Below, piece after piece: positions 706-58,407 of a stretch of DNA of 64,000 nt. The stretch comes from an uncultured Polyangiaceae bacterium (GTDB lineage: Bacteria > Desulfobacterota > Binatia > UTPRO1): positions 2,129-66,128 of the forward strand of contig CAZWAX010000002.1 of NCBI GenBank assembly GCA_964631985.1, read 5' to 3'. The notes under the pieces were generated by a model. The model was not told the origin of the DNA. It saw only the letters and a list, made by a program, of their open reading frames with translations, and did not search any database. A program made the translations under genes and the position numbers. Numbering within the stretch: the stretch's first letter is position 1; each line of letters begins with the position of its first letter.

Positions 706-738
706 GGCGACCACAATCCCAGGGAATGGAGGGCCTCG

Positions 739-1962
739 ATGCCCGCAGCGCTCAATCTGCTCGACCCGGATCTGCACGCGAACCCGTATCCGCACTATGC
801 GGCGATCCAAGACACCTCGCCCGTCTGTATCGTGGAACCCTTCGGGTTTTTTGGCGTCACGCGCTACGACGACGTGGTTTCGGTCCTTAAACGTCCGGAA
901 ATCTTTTCGTCGCGGGCCATGACGAGCATGCTTGGGGACCTAAACCCGGTGCCGGATGCGCTGACGTTGATCGCTACCGATCCGCCGGTGCACACCCGCC
1001 TTCGAACGCTCGTGAATCGCGCATTCACGCCGCGCGCGATCGCGGCGCTCGAACCGCGCATCCGCAAGATCACGCGTGCCGCCCTCGATGGGATGACGTC
1101 GGCCCACCCGTTCGAGCTCATCGGCGAGCTCGGCATCCCGCTTCCAGTGACCGTCATCGCCGAGCTCCTGGGTATTCCAGCCGAGGACCAACAGGATTTC
1201 AAGCGTTGGTCAGACGACATCGTGCAGGCCGTCGGCGGCATGATCACCGCGGAGGATCACGAGCGCATTCGGCAGAGCATCAAGGAGTTCCAGCTCTACT
1301 TCGAAGAGACGGTTGCTCGCCGGCGGCTGGAGCCCACCAACGACGTCCTCAGCGACCTCATTCGCGCGGAAGAAGATGGCCTGTTGCTAAGCGCGACCGA
1401 TGTCATGGCCTTCAGCAGTCTGCTCTTGGTCGCAGGCAATGAGACGACGACGAACCTCTTGGGAAACGCCGTCGTGGCGCTCCTCGAGAATCCCGTGGAG
1501 CTCTCGAAGGTGCGCGCCAATCCCGGCCTCATTCCGGGCCTCATCGAAGAGACCCTGCGCTACGACAACCCGGTCCAATGTCTTTTCCGCCAGACGCTAG
1601 AAGAGGTGACACTTGGCGACGTGACGATCCCGGAGGGGGCAATGGTCATGCCCTTCTTCGCGGCCGCGAACCGCGACCCGGAGAAGTTTCCAGACCCCCA
1701 TACGTTCGATGTCACGCGCAATGCCGTCGGCCATCTCGGATTTGGGTTCGGCATTCACTTCTGCTTGGGCGCACCCCTGGCACGGCTCGAGGCGCGCGTC
1801 ATGCTCGAGGTGCTCTTGGCACGAGCGCCGGAGTTCACGTTCACTGACTCGAGGGTTGAATACATCGAGTCTCTGTTTCTCCGTGGTCCCAAGCGCCTTC
1901 CCTTGACGTGTCGGGAGCGTTCGCTCGCGAGCAACGCTCCCCGCGCTGCGGTGACCGTATGA
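739..1962 (+). CDS. cytochrome P450
   Basis: 407 aa. Heme-binding signature FGFGIHFCLGAPLA, ETLR and AGNETT helix-I motifs. GGAGGG RBS before the ATG. Stop overlaps the next start (ATGA). Confidence 0.9.
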   Translation: MPAALNLLDPDLHANPYPHYAAIQDTSPVCIVEPFGFFGVTRYDDVVSVLKRPEIFSSRAMTSMLGDLNPVPDALTLIATDPPVHTRLRTLVNRAFTPRAIAALEPRIRKITRAALDGMTSAHPFELIGELGIPLPVTVIAELLGIPAEDQQDFKRWSDDIVQAVGGMITAEDHERIRQSIKEFQLYFEETVARRRLEPTNDVLSDLIRAEEDGLLLSATDVMAFSSLLLVAGNETTTNLLGNAVVALLENPVELSKVRANPGLIPGLIEETLRYDNPVQCLFRQTLEEVTLGDVTIPEGAMVMPFFAAANRDPEKFPDPHTFDVTRNAVGHLGFGFGIHFCLGAPLARLEARVMLEVLLARAPEFTFTDSRVEYIESLFLRGPKRLPLTCRERSLASNAPRAAVTV

Positions 1963-3053
1963 GCAAGCGCCTGCACTATTCGTACGAAGAGATCATGATG
2001 GATCACGACTACGTCGAGCGGATTCATCACGACGGCCGACTCTTCCATGGAGGACTAGACGCTGCAGGCCGCTACGTGCCGCCGCGATCGCGCCATCGTC
2101 TGGACGCGATTGCCGCGTGGCGCGAACGGCTTCAGCAGCGCAAACAAGCAAGCGAGGTCGTCCACCTTGGGGACGTCGAGCGAGCCTTCTTCCCGAATGT
2201 GGCGCAGGCAAAACTACTGCTGCGTTCCGGGGCCAAGGAGGCTATGACGCGGATCCTGACCCTCATTGGTGTCACCGAAGGCTTCGGCAATGACGGCATT
2301 CGGGCGTTACCTGCGATGGACCTCTCGCACTTCTATACGGCACCGCTCGAGGACACCTGTCTCGGACACCTTCGCACGGGGCTGATGGAGGCCCACGGGA
2401 ACGACGAAGCCGGACGCGGCGACGAATCTGGCCATGACCAGATGTGGTACGCGATCCGAGACGCAGCACTCGAGCGGCCGACAATCACGGCCGACATGTT
2501 CGAGAACCTGCCGATAGCTCCCCCGCCAGGGTACGAAGGACCCGCGAAGCCCGGCCCGGAAGCGATCGGTGTGAGTTCCCTCGCAAGTCAGCTCTTTCCT
2601 GAGCTGGCTCCCATGTTCGAGCTCACGCTCACAGCGCTCGCCCAGATTTTGGTCATCGAGCTCATGGCATTTTCCACGTTTGCCTGGGCGCGCGAAGTGC
2701 TGGCGGACCCCCTGGGATCCGCGGCGCCCACGTTTGGACCAACGATGGTCGATCGCATCACCGTCGATGAAGGGATTCACGTCGGATACCTGCAATGCGC
2801 GCTCGCGGAGACCCGCTGCCGGCTGCTCGTATCGGCCGTCGGCGGCACTCTTGGAGGCGCTCAAGTAGTGGACGCCATCGTCAAGAAGATCGTCGCTCAG
2901 AACACGGGCGCTCGATGGGACCGGATGAATGTCTACCGGATGAAGCAGATCAGGGCAGAGCTCGAGCGCCGGCGAGACGGGGAGCGTCTCCTTGCGGAGT
3001 TCGCCGAGCTTGGGCCGGTGCCGGCGGAGAGTGCTGCGGTCGCTCTCGCGTGA
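1959..3053 (+). CDS. hypothetical protein, paralog of 54069-55145 (protein X family, unknown function)
   Basis: Start chosen at the internal ATG that aligns with the N-terminus of its paralog (MSKRLHYSYEEIM vs MKLSYTNDEIM). Shared blocks FPNVAQ, LTLIG(V/I)TEGFGNDGI, EAHGNDEAGRG(D/E)E(S/A)GHD, PIAPPPGY(E/T)GPAKP, DE(G/N)IHV(G/S)YLQCALAE. Several E..H pairs. Confidence 0.7.
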   Translation: MSKRLHYSYEEIMMDHDYVERIHHDGRLFHGGLDAAGRYVPPRSRHRLDAIAAWRERLQQRKQASEVVHLGDVERAFFPNVAQAKLLLRSGAKEAMTRILTLIGVTEGFGNDGIRALPAMDLSHFYTAPLEDTCLGHLRTGLMEAHGNDEAGRGDESGHDQMWYAIRDAALERPTITADMFENLPIAPPPGYEGPAKPGPEAIGVSSLASQLFPELAPMFELTLTALAQILVIELMAFSTFAWAREVLADPLGSAAPTFGPTMVDRITVDEGIHVGYLQCALAETRCRLLVSAVGGTLGGAQVVDAIVKKIVAQNTGARWDRMNVYRMKQIRAELERRRDGERLLAEFAELGPVPAESAAVALA

Positions 3054-4414
3054 CGGTTAGGCGCGGCCAGACGACACGACGAGCGTTGGCAATTCTCCGC
3101 CTCTTGGGCACCGTCGGCGTCCTTTGCACACGTGTGCCCTCGAGCATGGCCGACGTCGTGACGCTCGAGGAAGCCTGTGCCGCGGCCGTGCATACGCACG
3201 AACGGATCGCGGCGGCCGAGGCCGATGAGGAACGCGCGGCCGTTGCTCCGTGGCGCGCGCTCAGTGCTCTCGGTCCGTCGGTCCACGGTACCGGCTCGTT
3301 CACTCGCGAAAAAGACGCCATCGCGTTCCCAACCCAGGCTGGTGTTCCCTCGGATAGTTTCAACCCGTTGATTCTCGCGAAAGACCCTTTGCGGGCTTCG
3401 CTCAGCGTGACTCAACCGCTCTACACGCACCAATTCTGGGCGCTCCGCGATCTCGGCAAGTCCGAGGTCGCGCGGAGTGCGGAAGCCTATCGCGCGACTG
3501 TGCAGGACATCGTCCTCGCTGTCACGGCAGCGTACTACGACGCGCTACGGGCCCGCACACTGCGCGCTGTGGCCGACGAAGCGGCACGACTTGCCGATGC
3601 CGAGGCGGTCCATGCGCGCACTCGCCTAGAAGTCGGCGAAACGATGCGCACCGATGTACTCCGCGCGGAGACTGAGATCGCGAGAACCGCGCAGCGAGTG
3701 GCCGAGACAACAGGGGCGGTCGAAGTCGCATCGATGACACTCTCTCGGCTAACAAGACTCCGCGAACCTTTTGAATTGGAAGATCCGCCGCCGCGGCGGC
3801 TGAGTGCGGACTCCCCAGCGCCGATCGTCGCGACCGCGCTGCTGCACAACCCGGACCTCCAGCAAGCGCTAGCCGCACTCGAAGCGGCGCGCGCTGAAGA
3901 AGCACGGCGGGAGGCCGCGCTGTATCCGACGCTCGCAGTGCAGGGGAGCTACCGATTGGTGAATCAGGAAACCTTCGTTGAGCTCAACAACTTCTGGCAG
4001 GTCGTCGTGGGTATCGAGATCCCCCTCTTCGAAGCAGGAGGCGCGCGCTATCTGGACGTGGCGGAGCAACGTGCCCGCGTCAAGAATGTCGCCGCGCAAG
4101 TGGCCGGACTGCAGCGCGACCTCGAGGTCGACGTCGGCCGCGCCTTTGTGACGGCCCGCACACTCGAACAGCAGGAAGCCACGGCTGAGAAGGAAGCGGC
4201 CCTTGCGGTCGACAGCTATCAACTGCTCTCCCGCCAATACCAAGGCGGGGCCGCCACCAGCCTCGATGTCCTCACCGCGCTCACTGCGCGCGCTGCCGCT
4301 CAGAGCAATCGCGCCGTCATCCGGTACGCGCACGCTATTGCCCTCGCCCAGCTCGACCGCCTCGCGGGTACGCTTGGCGTTTCCGATGCCGCACGTCCCG
4401 CGGAGAGGCCCTAG
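3050..4414 (+). CDS. TolC-family outer membrane efflux protein
   Basis: GTG start overlaps the upstream stop (GTGA). N-terminal signal-peptide-like segment (RRALAILRLLGTVGVLCTRVPSSMA). Coiled-coil and beta-barrel repeat pattern typical of OEP/TolC proteins. Confidence 0.8.
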   Translation: MTVRRGQTTRRALAILRLLGTVGVLCTRVPSSMADVVTLEEACAAAVHTHERIAAAEADEERAAVAPWRALSALGPSVHGTGSFTREKDAIAFPTQAGVPSDSFNPLILAKDPLRASLSVTQPLYTHQFWALRDLGKSEVARSAEAYRATVQDIVLAVTAAYYDALRARTLRAVADEAARLADAEAVHARTRLEVGETMRTDVLRAETEIARTAQRVAETTGAVEVASMTLSRLTRLREPFELEDPPPRRLSADSPAPIVATALLHNPDLQQALAALEAARAEEARREAALYPTLAVQGSYRLVNQETFVELNNFWQVVVGIEIPLFEAGGARYLDVAEQRARVKNVAAQVAGLQRDLEVDVGRAFVTARTLEQQEATAEKEAALAVDSYQLLSRQYQGGAATSLDVLTALTARAAAQSNRAVIRYAHAIALAQLDRLAGTLGVSDAARPAERP

Positions 4415-5472
4415 TGTCGAAGCGCCGATCGTTGTGGATCCTTCTCGGTCTTATCGTCATCGTCGTGGCCGCGATCTGGGGCGTGGAGTGGTGGCGCTTC
4501 CATCGCACACACGTCAGCACGGACAACGCCTATGTTCGCGCGGACAACGTGCTGATTACCCCGCGCATTCCCGGAACGATCAGCGAGCTCGCCGTCGAAG
4601 ATCATTGGCAGGTGAATGCGGGCACAGTGCTCGCGCGCCTCGACCGCGCAGACTATGAGATTCGGCTTCGGCAGGCGGACGCCGCATTGGCGCGTGCGAG
4701 GGAAGGTGTCGCACAGGCCCGCGCGGCAGTGTGGACCGCCGAGAGCCAGGCGCGCGCGGCTGAAGCACAGCTCGCCCAGGCGCGACTCGATGAAGCACGT
4801 GTTGCCCAGCTCGCGAGCGGTGATGCCGCACCCGCTGACCGCGTCGAACATGCCCACACCGCACGGCGCACGGCCGAGGCCCAAGTCGAAGCGGCACGCC
4901 GCGGCGTCGAACAGGCACGCGCGTTCCTCGGTATCTCCCTCGATGCCCCCGATACCGAAGCGTCGAGCGTGCGTCAGGCGACCGCCGCACGCGACGAGGC
5001 CGCGCTGCTCCTTTCGTACACGGAACTTCGAGCGTCCAGCAATGGCGTCGTCACGAAACGCTCCGTCGAGGTTGGGCAGGCCGTCCAACCGGGCCAGCCA
5101 ATCATGGTGCTTGTTCCTCTGGAGCGCGTCTACATTGAAGCCAACTTCAAAGAGACGCAGCTTGCTGCGGTCCGTGTCGGGCAGCCGGCAACCATCGTTG
5201 CCGATCTCTACCCTGATCACGTCTACACCGGGCGAGTGGCGAGTCTCGCCCCCGGAAGCGGCGCCGCCTTCGCATTGTTGCCGCCGGAGAACGCGTCCGG
5301 CAACTGGGTGAAGGTCGTCCAACGCGTGCCGGTCAGAATCACGCTCGATGCGCCGCCGCCCCCAGAATGGCCGCTCCGCGTGAGCGTCTCGGTCGTCGCC
5401 ACGATTGACGTCACGAGCAGCGAAGGAAGTCGCGTGCTGCCGCTCACGCAGCCGGCCCACGCTGCGCCATGA
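4414..5472 (+). CDS. HlyD/EmrA-family membrane fusion protein
   Basis: Single N-terminal TM helix, long Ala/Arg coiled-coil, C-terminal beta-barrel region (GRVASLAPGSGAAFALLPPENASGNWVKVVQRVPVRI). GTG start overlaps the TolC stop. Confidence 0.85.
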   Translation: MSKRRSLWILLGLIVIVVAAIWGVEWWRFHRTHVSTDNAYVRADNVLITPRIPGTISELAVEDHWQVNAGTVLARLDRADYEIRLRQADAALARAREGVAQARAAVWTAESQARAAEAQLAQARLDEARVAQLASGDAAPADRVEHAHTARRTAEAQVEAARRGVEQARAFLGISLDAPDTEASSVRQATAARDEAALLLSYTELRASSNGVVTKRSVEVGQAVQPGQPIMVLVPLERVYIEANFKETQLAAVRVGQPATIVADLYPDHVYTGRVASLAPGSGAAFALLPPENASGNWVKVVQRVPVRITLDAPPPPEWPLRVSVSVVATIDVTSSEGSRVLPLTQPAHAAP

Positions 5473-7019
5473 GCGACTCGCCGCGCCCGCCCACGAACAA
5501 GTGGCTGGTGACTCTCGCGGTCATGCTCGCGACCGTCCTCGAGGTGCTCGATGTAACGATCGCGAACGTCGCGCTGCCGCACATGCAAGCGAGTTTCTCG
5601 GCCTCGATCGACGAAGTCACGTTGGTGCTGACGTCGTATCTCGTTGCGAGCGGCATCGTGATTCCGCTCACCGGCTGGCTCGCCGACCGTGTGGGCCATA
5701 AGCGTCTCTTCATCGGTAGTACAGTGCTCTTCACGGCAAGCTCGGTGCTCTGCGGGCTCGCCTGGAACCTCGAGAGCATCGTGCTCTTTCGCGTCGCGCA
5801 GGGGATTGGCGGCGCCGCCCTCATGCCGCTTTCGCAAGCAACGCTGCTCGAGGTCTTTCCCGAGGCCCAACACGGTCTCGCGACGGCCGTCTGGGGCATC
5901 GGTATCATGGCCGCGCCAATCTTGGGGCCGACGCTCGGCGGCTGGCTCACGGACAACTACCACTGGCGATGGGTCTTCCTCGTCAATCTCCCGCTCGGAC
6001 TCGTCGCGATCGCACTCCAACTGGCATTTGTCCCCGACGACTCCACCAAAGAACGACGGGTCACGCGCGTGGACTACGTCGGCTTGCTTCTCGTCACGCT
6101 GAGCATCGGATGCATGCAGATCGTGCTCGATCGCGGCGAACGATCCGATTGGTTTGCCGCTCCGTGGGTGTGGATCTTTACCAGCGTCTCGCTGCTTTCC
6201 CTCGTACTGGTGGTGCCATGGGAACTCAGGCACGAGGCACCCGTCGTGGATTTGCGCCTATTCCGGAAGGCGAGTTTCGCCTCCGGAACGCTCTTAACGG
6301 CGCTCCTCTTTGCCTGCCTCTACTCGAACCTCATCATGTTCGGTCTCTACCTCCAGACCGTGATGCAGTACCCCGCTTGGAACGCGGGCCTCACCATGGC
6401 CCCGCGTGGGATGGCCACCATGGTGGGGATGTTTGTCATTGGGCATCTGTACGCCCGCCTCGATCCCCGCTTGGTTCTTGCAGCCGGCCTTGGCCTTGTC
6501 GCTCTCAGCAGCTTTCAAATGGCGAACTTCCACGCAGGCTATGGCCAGCACGAGTTGATGATTCCGCTCCTCGTAAGCGGGCTGGGAATTGGGTGGACCT
6601 TCGTGCCGTTGTCGGCGAGCACGCTCAACGGTGTTCCGGCCGCGTCACTTGCGAACGCCTCCGGTCTCTTCAATCTCATGCGCAATACTGGCGCGAGCGT
6701 CGGCATCGCGATCTCCGGTACGCTTCTCGTCCGCTGGGGCCAGGCCCACCAGTCCCGCCTCGTTGAGCAAGTGAACCCGGTGAACCCCGCTGCCGACGCC
6801 GCTCTCCAGGGGGCGCAAGCGCTGGCCCGTCATGGCGGGGCGGATCCATTCACCGCAGCGAACCAGGCACTGGGCATGCTGTACGGGCTCATCCAACGCG
6901 AAGCGACCATCCTCGCGTTCGAGGACGTGTTTCGCTTTGCGGGCATCGTGGCACTTGCCATCCTTCCGTTGCTCTTGCTGCTGGGCAAAGGGCGGCCGGA
7001 CCCGTCGGCAATGCACTGA
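5469..7019 (+). CDS. MFS transporter, DHA2 (EmrB/QacA) family, 14-TMS drug efflux
   Basis: 516 aa with multiple hydrophobic helices. Motifs LDVTIANVALPHM and GxLaDrxGrkr. ATGA overlap with the MFP gene. Confidence 0.9.
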   Translation: MSDSPRPPTNKWLVTLAVMLATVLEVLDVTIANVALPHMQASFSASIDEVTLVLTSYLVASGIVIPLTGWLADRVGHKRLFIGSTVLFTASSVLCGLAWNLESIVLFRVAQGIGGAALMPLSQATLLEVFPEAQHGLATAVWGIGIMAAPILGPTLGGWLTDNYHWRWVFLVNLPLGLVAIALQLAFVPDDSTKERRVTRVDYVGLLLVTLSIGCMQIVLDRGERSDWFAAPWVWIFTSVSLLSLVLVVPWELRHEAPVVDLRLFRKASFASGTLLTALLFACLYSNLIMFGLYLQTVMQYPAWNAGLTMAPRGMATMVGMFVIGHLYARLDPRLVLAAGLGLVALSSFQMANFHAGYGQHELMIPLLVSGLGIGWTFVPLSASTLNGVPAASLANASGLFNLMRNTGASVGIAISGTLLVRWGQAHQSRLVEQVNPVNPAADAALQGAQALARHGGADPFTAANQALGMLYGLIQREATILAFEDVFRFAGIVALAILPLLLLLGKGRPDPSAMH

Positions 7020-7121: not shown

Positions 7122-7766
7122 TCAGCCCGCCGTCATGCGGCCGACCGTCGAGCGAACGAGGGTGCGGATGAAGCGCTCGATGTCCGCCGGCACCCGTTTG
7201 GTGATCTTCATCTGCACGACGATGTAGGCTGCTCCCATCATCAGGAGCGCCTCGCCCTCGGGTTCGAGGTCCGGGGCTACGGTACCCTCGCGCTGGCCGT
7301 GCTCGATGGCGGCGGCGATCGAACGCACCACACGCTCCTGAAAGGCGCGGTAGCGTGGCCAGCTCCCGTCGCCGAACGTGGTGCTCCAGTCGAGCCAGAC
7401 GCGGGCGTGATCGGGATGAGTGTCGACCGAAGCTGCGAACGTTCTCGAGAGCTGAAGGAGCGCGGCGGGGGCCGAACCGGCGCCCGCGAGCGACTGGTCG
7501 ACGAGCCCACCGTAGAACGTCTCGATCTCGGCGACCACCGCTTCCACGAGCGCAGTGCGGGTCGGGAAGTACACGAAGACGGCCGAGACCGAGACTCCGG
7601 CGGCTTCAGCGATCTCGGCGTGCCGGGCGGTGCGCAGGCCGCGCAGCGCGAACACTCGGAGCGCCGCGTCCAGCAACAGCGTACGGCGCGCACCCGGCGC
7701 GAGGCGGGCGGCCCGCTTGCGTACCGGTTGACGCCGCATCGGTCGCGCTTTGGTCCGCGTGGGCAT
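7122..7766 (-). CDS. TetR/AcrR family transcriptional regulator
   Basis: N-terminal HTH (LLDAALRVFALRGLRTARHAEIAEAAGVSVSAVFVYFPTRTALV). Divergent from the CYP153 gene. Confidence 0.85.
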   Translation of the reverse strand: MPTRTKARPMRRQPVRKRAARLAPGARRTLLLDAALRVFALRGLRTARHAEIAEAAGVSVSAVFVYFPTRTALVEAVVAEIETFYGGLVDQSLAGAGSAPAALLQLSRTFAASVDTHPDHARVWLDWSTTFGDGSWPRYRAFQERVVRSIAAAIEHGQREGTVAPDLEPEGEALLMMGAAYIVVQMKITKRVPADIERFIRTLVRSTVGRMTAG

Positions 7767-17823: not shown

Positions 17824-17862
17824 CCGGAATCGGTGTTCGGCTTGCTCCGGAATCGGTGTTCG
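17824..17862. repeat. 16-bp direct repeat ccggaatcggtgttcg x2 separated by 7 bp
   Basis: Exact 16-mer at 17824-17839 and 17847-17862, at the junction between the BVMO 3' end and the truncated Z-family fragment. Confidence 0.6.
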
Positions 17863-18179
17863 ACATGGCCCGGTGCACGCAGCCGGAGGATCCTGAGCTC
17901 ACCATCGAGAAGCTCGCCGGCGTTTTCGACGTGATGAAGCCCCATCTCGTCGCAACCTATGAGGCAACGGCGCGCGGCACCGATCAAATCGCCGATGCCC
18001 CGACCGTCGAGCTGCTGGAAGACATCGTCCGGCGCACTCGGCACCATGTCGCCTGGGGTCAGGAGGTGCTCGACCGGTTGTGCGACACCCCGGCGAAGCG
18101 AGAACGACGCCGTCTCCGCGCGACGAAGCTCCAGGCCAGCGTATGTGCCTGTGGTGGCGTCACGGCCGAGCTATCATGA
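17856..18179 (+). pseudogene. C-terminal relic of protein-Z family (paralog of 56127-56795), N-terminally truncated
   Basis: 107 aa aligning to the C-terminal half of the 222-aa protein Z (PEDPELTIEKLAGVFDV..PH.VATYE.TAR.TDQIADAPTVELL..IVRR). The N-terminal ~120 aa are absent. Confidence 0.5.
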
Positions 18180-45961: not shown

Positions 45962-47101
45962 GTGCCTATGTTTAATGGAATCGTGACGGTTTGGCATAAC
46001 CTCGTTGCGACTGAGCTGCCGCCAAGCTTCGAGCTTCGCGAGGCGAACGTTCGGTGGGGCATGTCGCGTTCGACGCGCCGCCGGCGCTCCGTGCGAGTCG
46101 TCGATGTCGTCCAGGAGACCCCGTCCACCCGCACCTACGTCCTCGAGAATCTCGCCCTGGACAAAGAGCCGATCATCTATCGAGCCGGGCAGCATCTGAC
46201 GGTGCTTCTCGAGGTCGACGGAGTCTCCCATCGCCGATGCTATTCGTTCTCGACGTCGCCGGCTGCCGGCGGATCAGCGGCGATCACGGTAAAATGCATC
46301 CCAGGTGGCGTCGTCTCGGGCTTTCTCGCGGAAAACATCGAGCCGGGACACACCCTCCGCATCGCCGAGCCCAGCGGGGTCTTCACGATCCCGACCGAGC
46401 CGGACACTGCACGGCGCTTCGTCTTCGTGGCCGGGGGCGTCGGAATCACGCCGCTCATCAGCCTCGCCGAGACCATTCTTCGCATGGAGCCGCGAAGCGA
46501 GGTCACACTCCTCTACGGAAGCCGCAGCGAGGATGAGATCATCTTCCGTCGTCGCCTCGCGACCCTCACCGCCGAATTTCCGCAAGCCCTCCGCGTCGTC
46601 CACGCAGTCGACGAAGCCCCCGAGGGGTGGACAGGCGTGACAGGCTGTCTCGACGGCAGCCGCGTTCTCGAGATCCTCGGCGGGCGCCCGGCCGCCGACT
46701 TCTATTACGTCTGCGGCCCAGCCCCGATGATGGACAGCGTGACTGAAGCGCTGCGCAGCGCGGGGATTCCGACCGATCGCGTGCGCACCGAGCGTTTCAC
46801 TTACGTCGCGAGGCAGGGCACCACGCGCCCCACCCAACCCTGTGACGTGGTGTTTGCGGCGAGCGGCAAGCGCATCACCGTGCGCCCCGATCAGACGATT
46901 CTCGAGGCGAGTCTCGAAGCTGGGATCGCGCTGGAATTCAGCTGCACGATGGGTGGCTGCGGAGCATGCAAGGTAAGGAGAACAATGGGACGGGTGGTCA
47001 TGGACGAGCCGAACTGCCTGACGCAGCAGGAGGCCGAAGAAGGCTGGATCCTCACCTGCTGCGCCTACCCCACAGAAACAACGGTCATCGAAGCGAGGTG
47101 A
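45962..47101 (+). CDS. oxidoreductase: FNR-type FAD/NAD(P)-binding reductase with C-terminal plant-type 2Fe-2S ferredoxin domain (PaaE/phenol-hydroxylase-reductase-like)
   Basis: RCYSFS FAD motif, GGVGITP NAD motif, C-terminal Cys cluster CTMGGCGACK...C. GTG at 45962 or ATG at 45968. Confidence 0.8.
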   Translation: MPMFNGIVTVWHNLVATELPPSFELREANVRWGMSRSTRRRRSVRVVDVVQETPSTRTYVLENLALDKEPIIYRAGQHLTVLLEVDGVSHRRCYSFSTSPAAGGSAAITVKCIPGGVVSGFLAENIEPGHTLRIAEPSGVFTIPTEPDTARRFVFVAGGVGITPLISLAETILRMEPRSEVTLLYGSRSEDEIIFRRRLATLTAEFPQALRVVHAVDEAPEGWTGVTGCLDGSRVLEILGGRPAADFYYVCGPAPMMDSVTEALRSAGIPTDRVRTERFTYVARQGTTRPTQPCDVVFAASGKRITVRPDQTILEASLEAGIALEFSCTMGGCGACKVRRTMGRVVMDEPNCLTQQEAEEGWILTCCAYPTETTVIEAR

Positions 47102-47166
47102 GCACGGTGCCGAGCCGAAACCGAGTGAGAACGGAGCCTCGGGGCGAGGGGCCGCACGCGCTCCGC

Positions 47167-47877
47167 ATGAAGGATCTCGTCCGCGAGGCCGGCCTCCCGC
47201 GCGAGACGATCCACTTCTACCTTTCGGAAGGGCTGCTACCGCCTGCGCGCAAGACGGGGCGGAACACCGCCCTCTATGAGAGGGAGCACCTCGACCGCAT
47301 CCGCACGATCAAGGAGCTCCAAGAAAAGCACTTCCTTCCCCTGCGAGCGATCAAGGCGATCCTCGACGAACGGGCCGAACCCCACGGGTTCACGCCCGAG
47401 CAGCGTCAGTTCCTCGCAGGAATCCGCACTCGCATGAACGGCCGGTTGGTGCCAGCCCCTGGCGTCGGCGTGCCGCTCCGTGAGGTCGTCGAGCGGACGG
47501 GCGTCTCCAAACAGGATCTCGCGGACCTCGAGAGCTCGGGTGCGATTGACGTCGAGCGACAGGGTCGGCGAGTGCTGGTGTCGAAGGAAGATGCCGAGGT
47601 GATCGAGTGTTGGGTGGCGCTCACCAGAATCGGCATCACTCCGGAGCGCGGATTCTCGCCTCGCCACGTTCAGATCTTCTCGAAGGCTCTCGACTCGATC
47701 GTGGACCAGGAGGTCGGCCTCTTTGCCGAGCGCTTCACGAAGGTCTCCGGGGTCGATGCGAGCGTGATCGTCGATCAGGCCGTACCCCTACTGAACCAGC
47801 TGATCGGCACGATTCACTGGAAGAAAATCCGGCGCTTCTTCGCGGACCTCGAATCAACCAATCGCGACCCCGACTGA
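47167..47877 (+). CDS. MerR family transcriptional regulator
   Basis: N-terminal MerR HTH (MKDLVREAGLPRETIHFYLSEGLLPP). Confidence 0.75.
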   Translation: MKDLVREAGLPRETIHFYLSEGLLPPARKTGRNTALYEREHLDRIRTIKELQEKHFLPLRAIKAILDERAEPHGFTPEQRQFLAGIRTRMNGRLVPAPGVGVPLREVVERTGVSKQDLADLESSGAIDVERQGRRVLVSKEDAEVIECWVALTRIGITPERGFSPRHVQIFSKALDSIVDQEVGLFAERFTKVSGVDASVIVDQAVPLLNQLIGTIHWKKIRRFFADLESTNRDPD

Positions 47878-47919: not shown

Positions 47920-49098
47920 ATGCCGAAAGACCGAATGTTGCAGGGGATGCCCGTTGGCGCGCGCCGTCAGGTGGAAGACGTCTTCGACGCGATGGCGATC
48001 GCGAACCAGATGCAGAACTGGACCGTGTTGAAGGACATGTTGCCCTCGGTCGGTCGCGGATTCGTCTTGAAGAAAGGCAAGCAAGGCCTGCCTGTGACGA
48101 TGAAGGCGAGCCACTCCGCGCATTTCGATTTTCAGTACAAGGGCGACTTCCCCGAGATGTACGATCTCTACCGGCGTGCCGTCCAGAACCAGTGGGACGC
48201 CGATGTCGCGCTCGACTGGACGACCGACGTCGATCCCATGGACCCAAACGTGAAAATCCTTCCCGACGAGGTCGTTCCTTTCGAGGGTCTCGAACAGCAC
48301 GGTATTCGACTCAACGCCGAGGAGCGCAAGCGCTTCGTACACTCGTTTAGCTCATGGATCCTGTCGCAATTTCTGCACGGCGAGCAGGGCGCGCTCTACG
48401 CGGCCTGTCAGGTCACCGAGAGCGTGCAATGGATGGATGGAAAGTTCTATGGCGCAACGCAGGTGATGGACGAGGGACGTCACGTCGAAGTCTTCCTGCG
48501 CTACCTCGAGTCGAAGCTCGGCAAGCTCTATCAGGTGAACGACAATCTCTACGTGATCATGGACAGTCTGATGCACGACTCGCGGTGGGACATGAAGTTT
48601 CTCGGCATGCAGATCATGATCGAGGGCCTCGCGCTCGGCGCTTTCGGCACGCTCTATCGGGTGACTGGCGAGCCGCTGCTGAAGGAGCTTTTGCGCTACG
48701 TGATCCAAGACGAGGCGCGCCACGTCCACTACGGGGTCCTCGCGCTCCGCGAGCACTTTACGAAGGCGCTCGACGAGCGTGAGCGTCGCGATCGGGAAGA
48801 CTGGTCGTTCGAGCTCGCGATCCTCATGCGCAATCGCTTCCTGGCGCACGAGATCTACGACGAGTGGTTCGCGCATAAGCTGAGCCGGTTGGACTGGAAC
48901 GAGGTGATCCAGACCATGCCATTCATGTGTCAGTTCCGCCACACGATGTTCCAGCGGCTGATCCCGAACCTCGAGTACATCGGGCTCCTCACGCCGAGAA
49001 TTCAGAAGTACTACGAGGACGCTGGGTTGATGACTTTCTCCGGAGGCCGAAACGCGACCGAGCTCACGGCGCGCGACCTCCTCGACGAGGTGAGCTGA
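47920..49098 (+). CDS. ferritin-like diiron-carboxylate protein (putative diiron oxygenase)
   Basis: Two E...ExxH motifs (EQGALYAACQVTES...MDEGRHVE and IEGLALGAF...QDEARHVHYG). AAGGAG RBS. Confidence 0.65.
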   Translation: MPKDRMLQGMPVGARRQVEDVFDAMAIANQMQNWTVLKDMLPSVGRGFVLKKGKQGLPVTMKASHSAHFDFQYKGDFPEMYDLYRRAVQNQWDADVALDWTTDVDPMDPNVKILPDEVVPFEGLEQHGIRLNAEERKRFVHSFSSWILSQFLHGEQGALYAACQVTESVQWMDGKFYGATQVMDEGRHVEVFLRYLESKLGKLYQVNDNLYVIMDSLMHDSRWDMKFLGMQIMIEGLALGAFGTLYRVTGEPLLKELLRYVIQDEARHVHYGVLALREHFTKALDERERRDREDWSFELAILMRNRFLAHEIYDEWFAHKLSRLDWNEVIQTMPFMCQFRHTMFQRLIPNLEYIGLLTPRIQKYYEDAGLMTFSGGRNATELTARDLLDEVS

Positions 49099-51835: not shown

Positions 51836-52510
51836 CTATCTCGCTTTCCCCACTCGCGGCCGCGTTCGTCGAGCAGTTGCCACCGCCGACGGGCTGAAGA
51901 GCGCGGAGACCAGCTCGTCCGCCGCGGGTAGCAGAGTCTCGAACGATTCCTCTGGCGTCCGGGTGATCCAGTCCGTAGCGGCAGCCGTCAGGATGCCCAC
52001 GAGAGCAACCGCCGCGAGCCGCGGATGGAGAGTCGAACGAAAAGCGCCTGCGCGAATCCCCTCGCGGCATGTTCCCTCAAGGAACTCGAGAAACGCCAGA
52101 TGGTGATCGTGGACCTGTTCGCCCAACTCGGCTTTGACGTTCCAGAGGAAGCCGCCGGTCACGTGCACGTAGATTTGGAAGAGGTGCTTGCGCGCGCCAA
52201 AGAAGTCGAAGAAGGCTCGGACCAGACGCTCAACTTTTTCGGGCGGTGATGTCACCTGCATCATCGCGTCGCGCAGGTGCTGCGCTATCTGGGGGAGCCG
52301 TCGCTCGACCACTGCGGCAAAGAGCGCATCCTTGCTGTCAAAGATCGTATACAGCGTGCCCGTCGCGTACTCGGCTTCACGCGCGATCTCCTGCATCGTC
52401 GCCTCGTGAAACCCCTTGCGAGCGAAGACGCGCTCGGCGACGTCGAGGACTTGATCCCGCCGCCACTCAAGCGCCCGTTGCTGTCGGGATAGCGGCTTCG
52501 GTTGGGTCAT
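51836..52510 (-). CDS. TetR family transcriptional regulator
   Basis: HTH (ATMQEIAREAEYATGTLYTIF). Start at the internal Met (MTQPKPL). Divergent from the MBL/X/ferritin/Z operon. Confidence 0.8.
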   Translation of the reverse strand: MTQPKPLSRQQRALEWRRDQVLDVAERVFARKGFHEATMQEIAREAEYATGTLYTIFDSKDALFAAVVERRLPQIAQHLRDAMMQVTSPPEKVERLVRAFFDFFGARKHLFQIYVHVTGGFLWNVKAELGEQVHDHHLAFLEFLEGTCREGIRAGAFRSTLHPRLAAVALVGILTAAATDWITRTPEESFETLLPAADELVSALFSPSAVATARRTRPRVGKAR

Positions 52511-52703
52511 CAGTGGAGGGCCTCCCCGAAGGCGGCCGTGACATCGCCGAGCCGCACGAATTCCTCCCCCACAGTCATCTTCGATCCCGACCGCCAAGGA
52601 CGGACCATTGGGGCCGCGCGCCACTCTAAGAGAGTCACTCGTGTATAGTCTACGTCGGCATTGACTTACTTGCAATGCTCTCCTAGAAACTGAATTCTCG
52701 TTC

Positions 52704-54050
52704 ATGGCGGACCAACTTGAAGCGCGGATCACGTGGCGGTTGGTGGCGACCAAGGCGGGCGACCTCCGTCTGTATCGGGTCGACGCTGCACCCCTCGGCC
52801 TCGCCACGCCCGGTCGCGACTTCGACCCGCTCGACCTGCTCCTCGCCCAATTTCCGAACCCCAGCACGGCACAGGTTCGTTCCGAGTTCGCGGAGGCGGG
52901 TGCGCCCGTCGGCGCGAGCTCGCTCGAGGTCGCGTGTCACGTGGTGTCGACACCCGACACTATGTTGATCGTCGACTCGACGTTCCGGCGCACGGCACCG
53001 CATGTCTTTCCGCGCGTGCTCGAGGAGATCGCCCGCCACGAGTCGCGTCACACAGGATCGCGGCCAATCGAGGTTCTCTACACGCACGCGCACTTCGACC
53101 ATGCGGGCGGCCGGGCCGCGATCGAGGGACTCGGCGCCGGCGTGACGACGCTCGCGCACCCCTACACTCGCGCGCTCTTCCCACTCGTGAGCCGCCCGGA
53201 GACGATGTTCCGGTCGAAAGGGCAGTTCCTGCGCGATTGCGGCATCACGCCACCGATGGAAGAGCTGTTCGCCGGCTACAGCGCAGCCCGCGAGCAACTC
53301 CTCGACCGGGCGCCCCGCCACCTAGACCTCGGACTTTTTCGGAGCGCGGAGGAGTCAGGGCTCCGCGTCGACCGAGTCATCGACCCAGCGGTCGAGCCCG
53401 TTGCGCTCCTTGGTGGGCGCGCCGAGGTGCTCCGCTTTGACGGCCACATTCCCGGCCATCTGTGCCTCCTGGTCGACGGCGGGCATCTCATCACCGGCGA
53501 CATGTGGCTCCCGGCGACGACCTCCACCGTCACGCCCGGCAGCCTCGCGGCGCAGGTCGGTGTCCCGGCGGAGACGTGTGGGGTGCTTCGCTATCTCGAA
53601 TCGAGCGAACGACTCCTCGCCGCTCCACTCGACAACTGCCTTTCCTATCCCAGTCACGAGGACATTTTTCGCAACCCGAAGCGGATGGCGCTGCGCGATC
53701 TGGAGGTCGTCGCAGCGAGCGCTGACCACGTCTATCGTGTGCTCGAGGAGCATCGCGCCCTCCCCATGCGGGTGCTTGACCTCACCTGGGGCGGCACGAG
53801 TCGCCTCCCGATCTGGAAGCTTCGGGGGAGCAAGTACCGTCTCCTGCTCGCACATGACGAGGCTACAGCGTGGGTCGAGGACCTGCTCCGGGCGGGAGAC
53901 CTGCGCGAGGTCGAGCCCGAGCGCTACGTATGGTCGGGCGGACGAACGCTGTGGCAGCGCGTCCACGAAGCCCGGGAACGTGCCCGTGCGCTGCATGGAG
54001 CTCTCGAGTTCCGGAGCCGTGGGCGTGCAAACATGCAGCCGGCGCCCTGA
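52704..54050 (+). CDS. MBL-fold metallo-hydrolase with long C-terminal extension
   Basis: YTHAHFDHAGG motif. Same architecture as 39213-40328. Confidence 0.75.
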   Translation: MADQLEARITWRLVATKAGDLRLYRVDAAPLGLATPGRDFDPLDLLLAQFPNPSTAQVRSEFAEAGAPVGASSLEVACHVVSTPDTMLIVDSTFRRTAPHVFPRVLEEIARHESRHTGSRPIEVLYTHAHFDHAGGRAAIEGLGAGVTTLAHPYTRALFPLVSRPETMFRSKGQFLRDCGITPPMEELFAGYSAAREQLLDRAPRHLDLGLFRSAEESGLRVDRVIDPAVEPVALLGGRAEVLRFDGHIPGHLCLLVDGGHLITGDMWLPATTSTVTPGSLAAQVGVPAETCGVLRYLESSERLLAAPLDNCLSYPSHEDIFRNPKRMALRDLEVVAASADHVYRVLEEHRALPMRVLDLTWGGTSRLPIWKLRGSKYRLLLAHDEATAWVEDLLRAGDLREVEPERYVWSGGRTLWQRVHEARERARALHGALEFRSRGRANMQPAP

Positions 54051-54068: not shown

Positions 54069-55145
54069 ATGAAGCTCAGCTACACGAACGATGAGATCAT
54101 GGCCGAGGCGGACTACGCGTCTCGCCTCCGCTGCGGCAAGGTGCTCTTTCACGGTGGGCTCGACGCCCGGGGTCGCTACGTTCCGCCCCGGTCGCGTAAC
54201 CGCCTGGCGGCCATTGCCGCCTGGACGGAGCGACTGCGTTCCGAAGGCCACGCGACGCAGGTGGTGACGATGGCGCAGGTCGAGCGCGAGTTCTTCCCGA
54301 ACGTCGCGCAGAGCAAGTGTCTGCTGCGACACGGCGCGCGCGACGCGATGACGCGCATGCTGACGCTCATCGGCATCACGGAGGGGTTCGGCAACGACGG
54401 CATCAAGATCATGCCGCGCCTCGATCTCCAGCAGTTCTTCAAGGAATCCATCGCCGACACCTGTCTCGCCCACCTACACGGCGGCCTCTTCGAGGCGCAC
54501 GGCAACGACGAGGCGGGGCGTGGTGAGGAGGCAGGCCACGACGTGATGTGGTTCCAGATCCGGGACGCAGCGCTCGAGAACCCGCGCATCACGCCCGACA
54601 TGTTCGAGAGTCTGCCGATCGCGCCGCCACCAGGCTACACCGGACCCGCAAAACCATCACCCGATGCGCTGAGCGTGGGCGATCTCGTCGAGCGGGCGGT
54701 GCCAGCGCTGGACCCCATGCTCGAGATCCTCCTATCCGCGCTGGCACAGATCCTAGTCATCGAGCTCATGGCCTACTCGACCTTCCGCTGGGCCCAGGAG
54801 GTTCTCGCCGACGCCGAGTGCTCGGCCGCTCCAGCGTTCGCACCGCAGATGGTCGACTACATCCAGGCTGACGAGAACATCCACGTGAGCTACCTCCAGT
54901 GCGCGCTCGCTGAGGCCCGGGCCCGGACGCTCATCGCCCAGGAGGGGCGGGAGCTGCCGGGGACGCACGTCGTCGACACGATCTGCGATCGAATCGTCCG
55001 TCGGAACACCGGCAGCCGGTGGGAGCGGATGATGGCGTACCGGATGAACCAGATTCGCAAGGAGATGGCCGCCCGTCCCGACGGCGAGCGGATCCTCGCC
55101 GAGTTCGCAGCCCTCGGCCCCGTTCCCCAGGCGGCAGCGGCCTGA
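54069..55145 (+). CDS. hypothetical protein X (unknown function; paralog of 1959-3053)
   Basis: 358 aa. Conserved blocks shared with 1959-3053. Repeated E/H-containing motifs (EAHGNDE, ADENIHV) hint at metal binding. Confidence 0.75.
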   Translation: MKLSYTNDEIMAEADYASRLRCGKVLFHGGLDARGRYVPPRSRNRLAAIAAWTERLRSEGHATQVVTMAQVEREFFPNVAQSKCLLRHGARDAMTRMLTLIGITEGFGNDGIKIMPRLDLQQFFKESIADTCLAHLHGGLFEAHGNDEAGRGEEAGHDVMWFQIRDAALENPRITPDMFESLPIAPPPGYTGPAKPSPDALSVGDLVERAVPALDPMLEILLSALAQILVIELMAYSTFRWAQEVLADAECSAAPAFAPQMVDYIQADENIHVSYLQCALAEARARTLIAQEGRELPGTHVVDTICDRIVRRNTGSRWERMMAYRMNQIRKEMAARPDGERILAEFAALGPVPQAAAA

Positions 55146-55170
55146 ACGAACCATCATACGGAGGTAACCC

Positions 55171-56130
55171 ATGCGCCGCTTCATTACCCACGACGAGCTG
55201 GCCCGCGACCGCCGGTTCATACGGCAAAATCTGATCGCGGACCTGATGGCCTCGCTTCCCGACGACGTCGACACCGTGGTCGAGGCGTTCGAAAACCTCG
55301 GACCGATGATCGCGGTGTCGGTGCAAACGACACCATTGGCCGAGGTCTTCGACGCCTACGGCCCGGGCTTCCTCCTCACCATCCTGAACGAGCCGCTCGA
55401 CCCTGACGATCCGGTCGCGCTGTTGCGTCTCAAAGTGCGCATGCACGGCATCTTCATGGGCGAGATGCAGGCGCTCGAGGGGGCCGGGCGGACGCTCTGG
55501 GACTTCCCGGACGCGCCGTGGGAGTTCAAGATGAACATGGCTCGGCAGTGTTGGGACGAGGCGCGCCACGTGCAGATCTACGAGAAGCTCCTCACGCACG
55601 TGGGCGGCACGGTCGGGATGTTCCCGGAGAGCACGTTTCTCTTCGAGGCCGCCTGCGCAGATGACCCGGTCCTGCGCGTCGCCGGCGTGAATCGTGGCCT
55701 TGAGGGCCTCGCCTGCGACGTCTTCCGCGACATGATCCGCTATGCCGAGAAGACCGGCGACGAAGTCCTGAGACAGGCGGTGGACTACGTGCTCGCCGAC
55801 GAGCTGACGCACGTGCGCTTCGGGAGCGAATGGGTGAAGGAGTTCACCCGGGACGACCCCGAGCGCGCGGCACGAGCCAAGGAGTTCCAGCTCGCGGTGG
55901 ACAAGAAGTTCAGCATCGGCGGCACCCGCTCGGGGCGCGAGGACGCCTCGATCCCGGTCGCCGTCGCCGACCGCAAGGAGGCCGGCTTCACCGACGGCGA
56001 GATCGAGGATCTCTACCGCGTGTCGGCGGAGGGACCGACGCGGCCGACGCTCCGGAAGGCGGCCGCGATCCTGCGCGAGCGGCACCTCGCGCGGAAGGCG
56101 GCCCAGGCCGTGGAGGCGGAGCGCTCATGA
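55171..56130 (+). CDS. ferritin-like domain protein (putative diiron-carboxylate protein)
   Basis: CWDEARHVQIYEKLL and ADELTHVRFGSEW (ExxH motifs). GGAGGT RBS. ATGA overlap with the next gene. Confidence 0.7.
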   Translation: MRRFITHDELARDRRFIRQNLIADLMASLPDDVDTVVEAFENLGPMIAVSVQTTPLAEVFDAYGPGFLLTILNEPLDPDDPVALLRLKVRMHGIFMGEMQALEGAGRTLWDFPDAPWEFKMNMARQCWDEARHVQIYEKLLTHVGGTVGMFPESTFLFEAACADDPVLRVAGVNRGLEGLACDVFRDMIRYAEKTGDEVLRQAVDYVLADELTHVRFGSEWVKEFTRDDPERAARAKEFQLAVDKKFSIGGTRSGREDASIPVAVADRKEAGFTDGEIEDLYRVSAEGPTRPTLRKAAAILRERHLARKAAQAVEAERS

Positions 56131-56795
56131 CCGCCGAGGCGCGCCGCTACCCCGGGCACCGAGACGACGAGCGGACCCCTTTCGAGCCATACTCGGCGTT
56201 CGACATTCCGGCCGACCTCCGTGCGCTCCACGGGCGGTTCGACGTCGAGGCGACCGCGCGGCGGGTACGCAATTTCCGCTACGCGGAGGAGTGGCTGATG
56301 ATGATCCTCGGCGGCTGGGTGGCGACGATCCCCGAGCTGCCGGTCAAGACCGGCCTTGGTAAGATCATCTGGGACACGGCGCAGGCGGCCGACGCTCTCG
56401 GCAGCCGGCTCCCGGAGCTTCGCGCTGGTCGGAATCCGAACACCGCCTCAGCGGCGGCCAACGGCGGTTTCGCCAAACTCATTCAGGCGGTCGCGGAGCC
56501 GGAGGATCCCGAGCTGACCATCGAGAAGCTCGCGGGCGTCTTCGACGTGCTGACGCCGCACGTCGTTGCCACGTACGAGTGGACGGCACGCCACACGGAT
56601 CAGATCGCGGATGCGCCCACGGTCGAGCTGCTCGACGAGATCGTACGCAGGAAGCGCCAACACCTCGCCTGGGGCCGCGAGGTACTCGAGCGCTTGTGCG
56701 ACACCGATGCGAAGAAAGAGCGTCGGCGCCTTCGGTCCCGCGTACTGAACGCACAGCTCGAGGGATGTGGCGGCATCACCGGGGAGCGCGTGTAG
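56127..56795 (+). CDS. hypothetical protein Z (unknown function, helical; a truncated paralog lies at 17856-18179)
   Basis: 222 aa. ATGA-coupled to the ferritin-like gene. Contains FRYAEEW and TYEWTARHTDQIAD blocks. Confidence 0.65.
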   Translation: MTAEARRYPGHRDDERTPFEPYSAFDIPADLRALHGRFDVEATARRVRNFRYAEEWLMMILGGWVATIPELPVKTGLGKIIWDTAQAADALGSRLPELRAGRNPNTASAAANGGFAKLIQAVAEPEDPELTIEKLAGVFDVLTPHVVATYEWTARHTDQIADAPTVELLDEIVRRKRQHLAWGREVLERLCDTDAKKERRRLRSRVLNAQLEGCGGITGERV

Positions 56796-57250
56796 TGCCG
56801 CTCACCACCGCCCCGAAGTTCGATCAGTTCGATCAAGCCATCGCCCAGGCGTTTCTGAACGCCAGCGAGGTTGCGAGCGGGTTGCCGGGATATCTCGGCG
56901 TTCGTGTCGTGGAGATCGGACCCGGGCGCCTGGTCGCATCGCTCGACGCTCGGCAGGAACTCCTGACGCCGTTTGGGACCCTCCACGGTGGCGTCATGGC
57001 GGCCTTCGTGGATCACGTCCTCGGGTGCGTCCTCTATCCCCTGATGCAGCGCGGCCAGTGGGCCGCGACGACGGAGTTCAAGCTGAACTACCTGGCTCCC
57101 GTCCGAGGTGGGACGTTGTTAGCCGAATCGACGGTCATCTCCATGGGCCGGCGCGCCGCCGTCGTGCGCGTCGAAGTCGCCAATGACGATCGCTTGGCGT
57201 GCACGGCACAGGGAACCCTCCTCATCTCCGATCCGCCCGGACGGGGGTAA
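56795..57250 (+). CDS. PaaI/4HBT-family hotdog thioesterase
   Basis: GTG start overlapping the protein-Z stop. Contains the hotdog motif LHGGVMAAFVD. Confidence 0.7.
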   Translation: MPLTTAPKFDQFDQAIAQAFLNASEVASGLPGYLGVRVVEIGPGRLVASLDARQELLTPFGTLHGGVMAAFVDHVLGCVLYPLMQRGQWAATTEFKLNYLAPVRGGTLLAESTVISMGRRAAVVRVEVANDDRLACTAQGTLLISDPPGRG

Positions 57251-57252
57251 GC

Positions 57253-58407
57253 ATGAAGGTATCACTCTTCTACCTTCCGTCGATCGGCAGCCGTGCCGAG
57301 ATCGAGCGTGGCATGGCCGGCCTTCGCGGGGACCTCTACCAGCGGATGCTGCACGAGCTCGTCGAGCAGGCCAAGATGGCGGACCAGCTCGGCTACGATT
57401 CTATTAGCTTCACGGAGCATCATTTTCACGTCGAAGGCTTTGAGTTGTCGAACAATCCGGTGATGCTCGACCTCTTCGTCGGCATGCAGACCAAGCACAT
57501 CCGCGTGGGGCAGCTCGGTATCGTCCTTCCCGCGGACAATCCGCTTCGCGTCGCGGAGGACATCGCGATGCTCGACCACATGACTGGCGGGCGCGCGAAC
57601 GCCGGGTTCGCCCGGGGGTACCAGCGCCGTTGGGTCGACGTCATGGCGCAGCAGCTCCACGGCATCCACGGAGCCCAGCCGCACCAGCACGACGCGATCG
57701 ATGAAGCCAACCGCGGCGCGTTCGAGGAGTCCTTTCGCATCATCAAGAAGGCGTGGACCGAGGACATGCTGTCCTACCAGGGTCGCTACTGGCGCATTCC
57801 GCCGGGCGAGACGCCGTGGAACGTCGAGTCGAGTCTCCGTTACGGCGCAGGAGTAGAGGACGGCATGGTGCGCGCCGTCGGCGTAGTGCCAAAGCCGCTT
57901 CAGAAGCCGCACCCTCCCATCTTTCAGCCGTTCGCATCGTCGGAGCGCAGTATCCGGTGGTGTGCGGAGGAGGGGGTGACGGCGATCCTGCCTCCGCTTC
58001 ATCCCCGACTCGAGGAGCGCCTGGTGCGCCTCTACGCGGAGGTATCGGGGAAGCCCCCGGGAGACGGCATCGGGGTGCTCCGCGACCTCATCGTGGCACC
58101 AACCGACGAGGAAGCGCTCGCGCTGTGGGCCGACAGCGGAGTCTTCTGCGGTGGGGAGTGGTTCGAGCCGTTCGGATTCTCCCGAGGTTTGGCCGATCCC
58201 GACACCGGGGAGCTCCCCGACATCCTGGGCCAGAGCCTCGCCCTCGTTGGATCGATTGACACCGTAACGAAGCAGCTCGAGGCGCTACGGACGCGCCTTC
58301 CGGTCCGCTGGTTGTTCGCCTGGACTTACAACGGGCTCGTGCCGCACGATCGAATCATGCACTCGCTATCCCGTTTCGCGACGCGCGTGTTGCCGAGAGT
58401 CTCATAG
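57253..58407 (+). CDS. LLM-class flavin-dependent oxidoreductase (luciferase-like monooxygenase)
   Basis: [11 protein letters not shown]-terminus, FTEHHF, LLM TIM-barrel pattern. Confidence 0.85.
   Translation: MKVSLFYLPSIGSRAEIERGMAGLRGDLYQRMLHELVEQAKMADQLGYDSISFTEHHFHVEGFELSNNPVMLDLFVGMQTKHIRVGQLGIVLPADNPLRVAEDIAMLDHMTGGRANAGFARGYQRRWVDVMAQQLHGIHGAQPHQHDAIDEANRGAFEESFRIIKKAWTEDMLSYQGRYWRIPPGETPWNVESSLRYGAGVEDGMVRAVGVVPKPLQKPHPPIFQPFASSERSIRWCAEEGVTAILPPLHPRLEERLVRLYAEVSGKPPGDGIGVLRDLIVAPTDEEALALWADSGVFCGGEWFEPFGFSRGLADPDTGELPDILGQSLALVGSIDTVTKQLEALRTRLPVRWLFAWTYNGLVPHDRIMHSLSRFATRVLPRVS

Follow-up and report, generated by a model that had tools for sequence, protein, structure and literature searches.

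Ferritin-like and heme-oxygenase-like (HO-like) diiron enzymes, among them ADO, UndA, AurF, PaaA and SznF, are rich in unusual C-H, N- and decarboxylative oxidations. In the core of phenylacetyl-CoA epoxidase, PaaA and PaaC share one fold at 17% identity, and PaaC is structural (PMC4498308). Here we describe three adjacent genes, termed X, Y and Z, from an uncultured Polyangiaceae bacterium that GTDB places in the Binatia (lineage UTPRO1). They lie on a stretch of 64,000 nucleotides (nt) of contig CAZWAX010000002.1 (assembly GCA_964631985.1, positions 2,129 to 66,128), hereafter the window, and occupy its positions 54069-55145 (X), 55171-56130 (Y) and 56127-56795 (Z) on the plus strand, encoding 358, 319 and 222 amino acids (aa), respectively. 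An earlier reading made from the letters alone (the sequence-only reading) took the three genes for one uncharacterised multi-subunit metallo-oxygenase or cofactor system; the open reading frames (ORFs) are present where it placed them.

By examining the neighbourhoods of X and Z relatives across genomes, together with family searches, ligand alignments and predicted structures, we hypothesize that the region holds two independent ferritin-like di-metal systems, Y-Z and X, in one TetR-controlled operon of six genes, and that both serve as inducible oxygenases or oxidases for hydrophobic substrates; taken as a whole, this two-system reading has in our judgement a slightly better than even chance of being correct. 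Its architectural part is probable, and its oxygenase and substrate part stands somewhat below even chances. Y-Z would consist of a catalytic DUF455 subunit and a metal-site-deficient partner, working independently of X. X would be a separate diiron oxygenase or oxidase, probably homo-oligomeric and apart from Y-Z, expressed under a ligand-responsive TetR and frequently placed in the same pathway as a P450; elsewhere it would normally be a TetR-X or P450-X unit. The substrates would be hydrophobic and possibly CoA-thioester-linked, and the electron donors non-dedicated.

Y and Z are a conserved gene pair

Two samples of loci (designated L and a number) were compared. The first consists of 80 loci with Z relatives from GTDB species representatives, among which 117 species genomes had a confirmed match; the loci kept all come from metagenome-assembled genomes (MAGs), labelled Binatia, Myxococcota, Deltaproteobacteria and a few others. 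The second consists of 80 metagenomic loci with X relatives, and the neighbourhood range is 10 kb. Counts for X, Y, Z, thioesterase and P450 genes rest on tblastn coordinates and not on ORF calls, in which antisense ORFs were sometimes picked (for example, cluster 12).

Of the 80 GTDB loci, 76 have Y as the gene directly before Z, or 76 of the 78 informative ones once two loci with Z at a contig edge are set aside. Among the 85 Y/Z junctions of all fetched loci, 76 show an overlap of stop and start of exactly 4 nt, the others ranging from -8 to +19 nt, and none of the 85 junctions yields a Y-Z fusion protein. Y and Z are an obligate pair across genomes. X, by contrast, is found within 10 kb in just 5 of the 80 Z loci (one from the window's own species, and three with 35-38% identity on the opposite strand), and Z or Y in 3 of the 80 X loci. 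Co-occurrence of all three genes, which the sequence-only reading had named as a check, is seen for Y and Z and not for X, and the idea of a single three-subunit unit is not supported. In Binatia-like contigs X and Y-Z are often close to each other, but their order and orientation vary (Y-Z-X in L005/L006, X-P450-Y-Z in L014, divergent or convergent in L095-L097), which favours, for that lineage, a common regulon or pathway over a physical complex.

Unbiased clustering of neighbours placed a TetR gene directly upstream of Y-Z in 14 of 71 loci and revealed no other conserved neighbour, including no conserved small third gene beside the pair; the substrate can therefore not be inferred from synteny.

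Y as a putative diiron subunit of the DUF455 family

Y belongs to Pfam family DUF455 (PF04305; 86.2 bits against a cut-off of 34.3, E 3.4e-24), and all of its listed homologues carry the same domain. None of the 30 aligned sequences departs from E98, E130xxH133, E178 and E211xxH214, and the set reads as the canonical diiron-carboxylate pattern (E...ExxH...E...ExxH) of ferritin-like diiron proteins. The ExxH pairs that had been noticed in the middle gene are thus part of a complete invariant set, one that would make Y the catalytic subunit.

With the family Y shares both the score and the E/ExxH/E/ExxH set, but it matches the profile at positions 67-246 only and falls in a tight clade (70-95% identity) in which Z always comes next, whereas the single canonical DUF455 gene examined (Geobacillus pGS18, 26% identity) stands alone. 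On these comparisons Y appears to represent a distinct DUF455 clade defined by its partner Z. A search for DUF455 and COG2833 in the literature library used returned no functional study, most DUF455 matches being prefix matches to other DUF numbers. Y also aligns with a Pfam-AurF protein of L004 (32% over 160 aa, E 1e-9) and lies itself outside the AurF family in Pfam (PF11583). A PDB match of Y (window 55171-56127) to Crov588 (6nyr, E 2e-6 to 2e-8) was rejected as an artefact, produced by fifteen weak matches of the 'ADELTHVRFG' helix of Y to a repeated LTHLTFG motif. Three loci have a further Y-like DUF455 gene, divergent at 56-59% identity, immediately after Z, in the arrangement Y-Z-Y2 (L021:10682-11605, L028:1468-2391 and L030:7043-7957); the Y2 gene of L021 is on the opposite strand.

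Z as a candidate partner with a degenerate ligand set

Searches of Pfam, NCBIfam and PDB with Z, as a single sequence and as a profile, gave no usable match; its family numbers about 1,300 members. The predicted model of Z is a ferritin-like bundle, with a predicted local distance difference test (pLDDT) score of 77 overall and mostly above 80 for residues 40-220, and its best matches include the beta subunits of toluene/o-xylene monooxygenase (ToMO) and phenol hydroxylase, as well as PaaC. Profile-profile alignment of Z and Y (hhalign) covers 123 columns with an E-value of 0.0044 and sets W82-D83-x-A85 of Z on W128-D129-x-A131 of Y. In this register E130, H133, E178 and E211 of Y correspond to T84, A87 and the variable positions 143 and 176 of Z, and the sole ligand kept is H179 (H214 of Y); four of the six positions of a complete diiron set are lost. 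Residues 1-37 of Z are nearly invariant across homologues, yet the model leaves them disordered; a segment that takes up its fold on a partner would behave in this way. From the adjacency of the genes and their ATGA coupling, we infer that Y and Z may form a heterodimer of a catalytic subunit and a ligand-deficient partner of the same fold.

Such an arrangement has a likeness in PaaA/PaaC, where a diiron subunit and a same-fold partner without a metal site are likewise encoded by adjacent genes; furthermore, a PaaI-type hotdog thioesterase is part of the Y-Z operon, and a PaaE-like reductase (FNR-type, with 2Fe-2S) is found elsewhere in the window. The two systems differ in that neither Y nor Z falls in the PaaA/PaaC Pfam family (Y being DUF455), no PaaB-like bridging gene lies by Y-Z, and none of the 160 related loci (80 Z and 80 X) has a homologue of the FNR-type reductase within 10 kb. 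Compared with the alpha/beta hydroxylases of soluble diiron and bacterial multicomponent monooxygenases (SDIMO/BMM), Y-Z has no Phenol_Hydrox or MmoB Pfam match, no gamma, coupling-protein or reductase genes, and much smaller subunits (319 and 222 aa). By analogy, we propose that Y-Z may work like PaaA/PaaC or BMM alpha/beta without being a member of either family.

A truncated copy of Z had also been reported from the window, and it is there: an ORF at 17856-18179 (plus strand) retains the C-terminal 99 residues only, at 73% identity to Z residues 122-220 (E 2e-52). It directly follows a Baeyer-Villiger-type monooxygenase (BVMO) gene; neither the N-terminal half of Z nor a remnant of Y was found nearby, and the exact ORF of this relic has no record elsewhere. 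A 16-nt direct repeat (CCGGAATCGGTGTTCG) is present at 17824-17862, after the BVMO stop (17780), in two copies 7 nt apart. The second copy overlaps the GTG start of the relic, whose homology to Z starts only at its residue 7, and the repeat looks like a rearrangement scar.

X as a separate candidate diiron protein

No match above threshold was obtained for X in Pfam, NCBIfam or PDB (single sequence and profile), and neither X nor Z had a tblastn match among 72,556 plasmids. The earlier statement that X and Z have no recognisable named domains is borne out. The family is matched by profile in about 565 cluster representatives among 1.84 billion proteins. The model of X, built from 38 homologues (pLDDT 92.7, predicted template modelling score 0.91), is a helical bundle of ferritin-like or HO-like type, in which the second ligand helix is broken at residues 150-156, at E154xxH157. 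All 38 sequences share E105, E154xxH157, E232 and E269xxH272 without variation, and likewise H135, H144, D147 and E148. In the model, the order and helix positions of the ligands fit a ferritin-type 2-His/4-carboxylate site, and X is predicted to combine a helical bundle with the E...ExxH...E...ExxH series of ferritin-like diiron-carboxylate proteins. Heme-oxygenase-like diiron oxidases (HDO) differ by a 3-His/3-carboxylate set with HxxxD/ExxH on the third core helix, which X does not show. No sequence-level relationship links X to ADO, MiaE, R2lox, UndA, HrmI or CADD, from which it differs by an N-terminal beta-rich extension, the broken E154xxH157 helix and the extra invariant residues H135/H144/D147/E148; the top Foldseek matches, which are weak, are HO-like diiron enzymes. 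Judged from predicted fold and motif, X would belong to the broad ferritin-like/HO-like diiron superfamily and to no described family within it.

All three proteins are thus predicted ferritin-like helical bundles, X and Z by their models and Y by its family and ligand pattern, as the fold check of the sequence-only reading had anticipated. That reading had also noted helical blocks with E and H in X and Z: those of X make up the complete invariant set, and those of Z a degenerate site that would not bind metal. Profile-profile alignments of X with Y and with Z revealed only an ExxH-helix motif in common and are not taken as evidence of homology.

A full-length paralogue of X, recognised early on and here termed X', lies at 1959-3053 (plus strand; 64% identity over the full length, E 3e-171). 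It follows a cytochrome P450 gene at 739-1962 (plus strand; Pfam p450, 1.5e-33) whose stop overlaps the X' start (ATGA), and it is followed by genes for outer-membrane (OEP), HlyD and MFS efflux proteins. L106 and L107 show the same overlap between the two genes. The ratio of nonsynonymous to synonymous substitution rates (dN/dS) is 0.19 for X/X' and 0.17 for Z and its relic, with saturated dS in both pairs; these are therefore old, selected copies and not recent duplications within the window.

Across the X loci, the commonest upstream gene is a TetR regulator at a distance of 2-21 nt (about 23 of the 62 loci with room for one). The coupled TetRs come from two subfamilies, and the coupling persists inside P450-TetR-X-P450-LLM operons, where LLM denotes a luciferase-like monooxygenase. 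P450 genes are present within 10 kb in 28 of the 80 X loci, and in one Pseudomonadales MAG (L004) X is preceded by an AurF-family diiron gene.

Some further arrangements were seen around X. In a second lineage (L121-L131 and L138-L140; for example, L129:7115-13521), a conserved operon consists of genes for a metallo-beta-lactamase (MBL) fold protein, P450, TetR, X, P450 and an F420-type LLM, preceded by MMPL and two hotdog genes; although TetR is mid-operon, its stop precedes the X start by 5 nt or overlaps it. In the window, X' is part of an operon at 49-7019 (transglutaminase-like, P450, X', OEP, HlyD, MFS) with a divergent TetR at 7122-7766. In L009/L010 (L009:5614-8711), a transglutaminase-core gene stands between an RND pump and TetR-Y-Z, and genes for efflux, transglutaminase-like and ferritin-like proteins are thus found together repeatedly in Binatia-like genomes.

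Operon layout

The six packed genes of the operon are MBL, X, Y, Z, thioesterase and LLM, and a TetR gene is divergent from them, so that Pfam and NCBIfam agree with the setting given in the sequence-only reading. The TetR-family regulator (51836-52510, minus strand, 224 aa, with an ATG start at 52510 and the same length by an independent gene call) matches TetR_N at 5e-16 and the YsiA/FadR-like TetR_C_4 at 1e-7. The divergent intergenic region (52511-52703) contains an imperfect inverted repeat at 52649-52687 (15-nt arms, 73% complementary, 9 nt spacing), which is a candidate operator; a scan of this TetR/MBL region for the sigma-70 consensus gave no match, and promoter and terminator scans were uninformative. 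On the plus strand follow the MBL-fold gene (52704-54050; 448 aa, HxHxDH motif, Pfam Lactamase_B 2e-5), the trio, a hotdog-fold thioesterase of PaaI/4HBT type with a GTG start (56795-57250; Pfam 4HBT 2.6e-16, TIGR00369 4e-21, PaaI 3e-12) and, as last gene, an LLM of flavin/F420 type (57253-58407; Pfam Bac_luciferase 3.9e-30). The order TetR-MBL-Y-Z recurs in L011/L012, and an MBL homologue with 62% identity is close to X/Y/Z in L096.

MBL and X are separated by 18 nt, X and Y by 25 nt with a GGAGG site, and thioesterase and LLM by 2 nt; Y and Z overlap at ATGA, and Z and the thioesterase by 1 nt. Translational coupling of all three trio genes had been assumed, and on these spacings strict coupling would apply to Y/Z and Z/thioesterase, X and Y being merely close-packed. 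The identical arrangement is found, with independent gene calls, in three other assemblies. X, Y and Z have many conserved homologues, and the paralogue pairs have dN/dS values of 0.17-0.19; they are therefore real coding genes and no chance ORFs.

A Binatia MAG contig that is 90-94% identical to the window carries a P450 gene between X and Y (L014:1357-3218, corresponding to window 55122-55301). On either side of this gene is a copy of a 180-bp direct repeat (95% identical), which covers the end of X, the intergenic region and the start of Y, and the first repeat copy carries a frameshifted 5' fragment of Y. The window and the three other assemblies have no such P450, and the X-Y junction is therefore a recombination hotspot for gain and loss of a P450 cassette.

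Genomic context and candidate electron donors

The window is rich in oxidation genes: two further P450s, a BVMO, several acyl-CoA dehydrogenases (ACADs), enoyl-CoA hydratases, and thiolase-like and Amidohydro_2 proteins, along with short-chain dehydrogenases/reductases (SDRs), aldehyde and alcohol dehydrogenases, other LLMs, MBL-fold proteins and efflux pumps. It is an island for the oxidation of hydrophobic and CoA-ester compounds, and the catabolic setting proposed earlier from the trio's neighbours is borne out by these genes. In Binatia-like contigs, Y-Z and X loci adjoin TetR-controlled RND/MFS efflux pumps, alpha/beta hydrolases and P450s. The context agrees with what is described of the Binatota, which are alkane and methylotrophic oxidisers rich in monooxygenases (PMC8262859). 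Homologues of the hotdog thioesterase (54-70% identity to that of the window) recur around both modules, at 10 of the 80 Z loci and 14 of the 80 X loci. Because of this context (a FadR-like TetR, a thioesterase, CoA-ester catabolic genes and efflux pumps), the substrate may be hydrophobic and is possibly an acyl-CoA.

The sequence-only reading had pointed to a reductase at 45962-47101 (plus strand) for co-expression with the trio. The gene is real and encodes an FNR-type reductase with a C-terminal 2Fe-2S domain (Pfam FAD_binding_6, NAD_binding_1, Fer2), but it lies 7 kb away behind MerR, histidine kinase and other genes, and its homologues were absent from the 160 loci, so that it is a possible and not a dedicated electron donor. 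Directly downstream of it and of a MerR regulator (46966-47877) is a fourth ferritin-like gene, W (47920-49098, plus strand), which is related to AurF through 36.5% identity to the Pfam-AurF protein that precedes the X homologue in L004. W falls outside AurF (PF11583) in Pfam, and no Pfam family matches it above threshold, its ADO and R2 matches being weak and sub-threshold. It may be W, rather than any of the trio, that the reductase serves.

Discussion

Several observations weigh against the two-system reading. Two loci have a full-length Z without an adjacent Y (L057:10001-10645 and L085:10001-10654). The Z-Y alignment has a low hhalign probability (7.8%, E 0.0044), and Foldseek of X against PDB gave nothing significant (best E 0.18). 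No reductase, ferredoxin or coupling protein is conserved near X or Y-Z. Outside Binatia-like genomes the neighbours of Y-Z are heterogeneous and sometimes housekeeping genes (dapF, mtaB-like), which makes substrate inference weak. As to L057 and L085 themselves, the position upstream of Z is taken by a membrane protein or an outer-membrane-like protein, and in L085 the gene in that position overlaps the start of Z all the same.

The loci with an unpaired Z could also be taken to mean that Z is an effector or a metallochaperone and not a scaffold, as could the polar residues that it keeps invariant (E55, D/E83, Q86, D89, E133 and H179) and its conserved N-terminal tail. However, Z is a full-size ferritin-like bundle of the catalytic-subunit type in its model and no small effector fold, its best matches include the ToMO and phenol hydroxylase beta subunits and PaaC, and the ATGA coupling suggests stoichiometric production with Y; we consider such a role unlikely.

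X, in turn, might not be a free-standing oxygenase and might instead be a functional partner of P450s that acts on a P450 product, or supplies or removes oxidant or electrons. The gene overlap between P450 and X', present in the window as well as in L106/L107, speaks for this, as do the P450s within 10 kb in 28 of 80 X loci, often on both sides (P450-TetR-X-P450 in L121-L131), and the P450 cassette between X and Y in L014. Many X loci nevertheless have a TetR and no P450, and the genomes are P450-rich, so closeness is partly expected; there is little likelihood that X is such a partner.

X and Y-Z may not be substrate oxygenases at all, having instead an iron or oxidative-stress role (as ferritin, Dps or rubrerythrin) or a self-modifying or cofactor-forming one (as CADD or R2lox), which we regard as quite unlikely.

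A single multi-component metallo-oxygenase with X, Y and Z as its three subunits is very improbable. In its favour, the genes are adjacent in the operon of the window, and X and Y-Z are neighbours in several Binatia-like contigs (L005/L006, L014, L095-L097). Against it, about 94% of Z loci lack X and about 96% of X loci lack Y-Z, order and orientation vary, and a P450 can stand between X and Y; X also carries a complete ligand set by itself and shows a conserved coupling to TetR or P450 genes of its own, and X' sits in a P450/efflux operon without Y-Z.

Beyond the two-system reading itself, a stronger claim can be formulated, namely that X is a new diiron family, possibly a dedicated partner of P450s, and that DUF455 with Z is a new minimal two-subunit oxygenase for CoA-linked or lipid substrates without a dedicated reductase; at present we hold this to be rather unlikely. 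If it were true, uncultured Binatia and Myxococcota-like lineages would be the source, through X and the DUF455-Z pair, of a new chemistry of oxygen activation. PaaA needs PaaC to be soluble, and the DUF455 clade may likewise be intractable when expressed alone because of its obligate partner Z. X and Y-Z overturn no established concept, being variants on known diiron enzymes that bring no new principle. Both families are confined to uncultured lineages that oxidise hydrocarbons and lipids, and characterising X and Y-Z could add oxidative steps to models of hydrophobic-compound turnover, as well as provide new biocatalysts.

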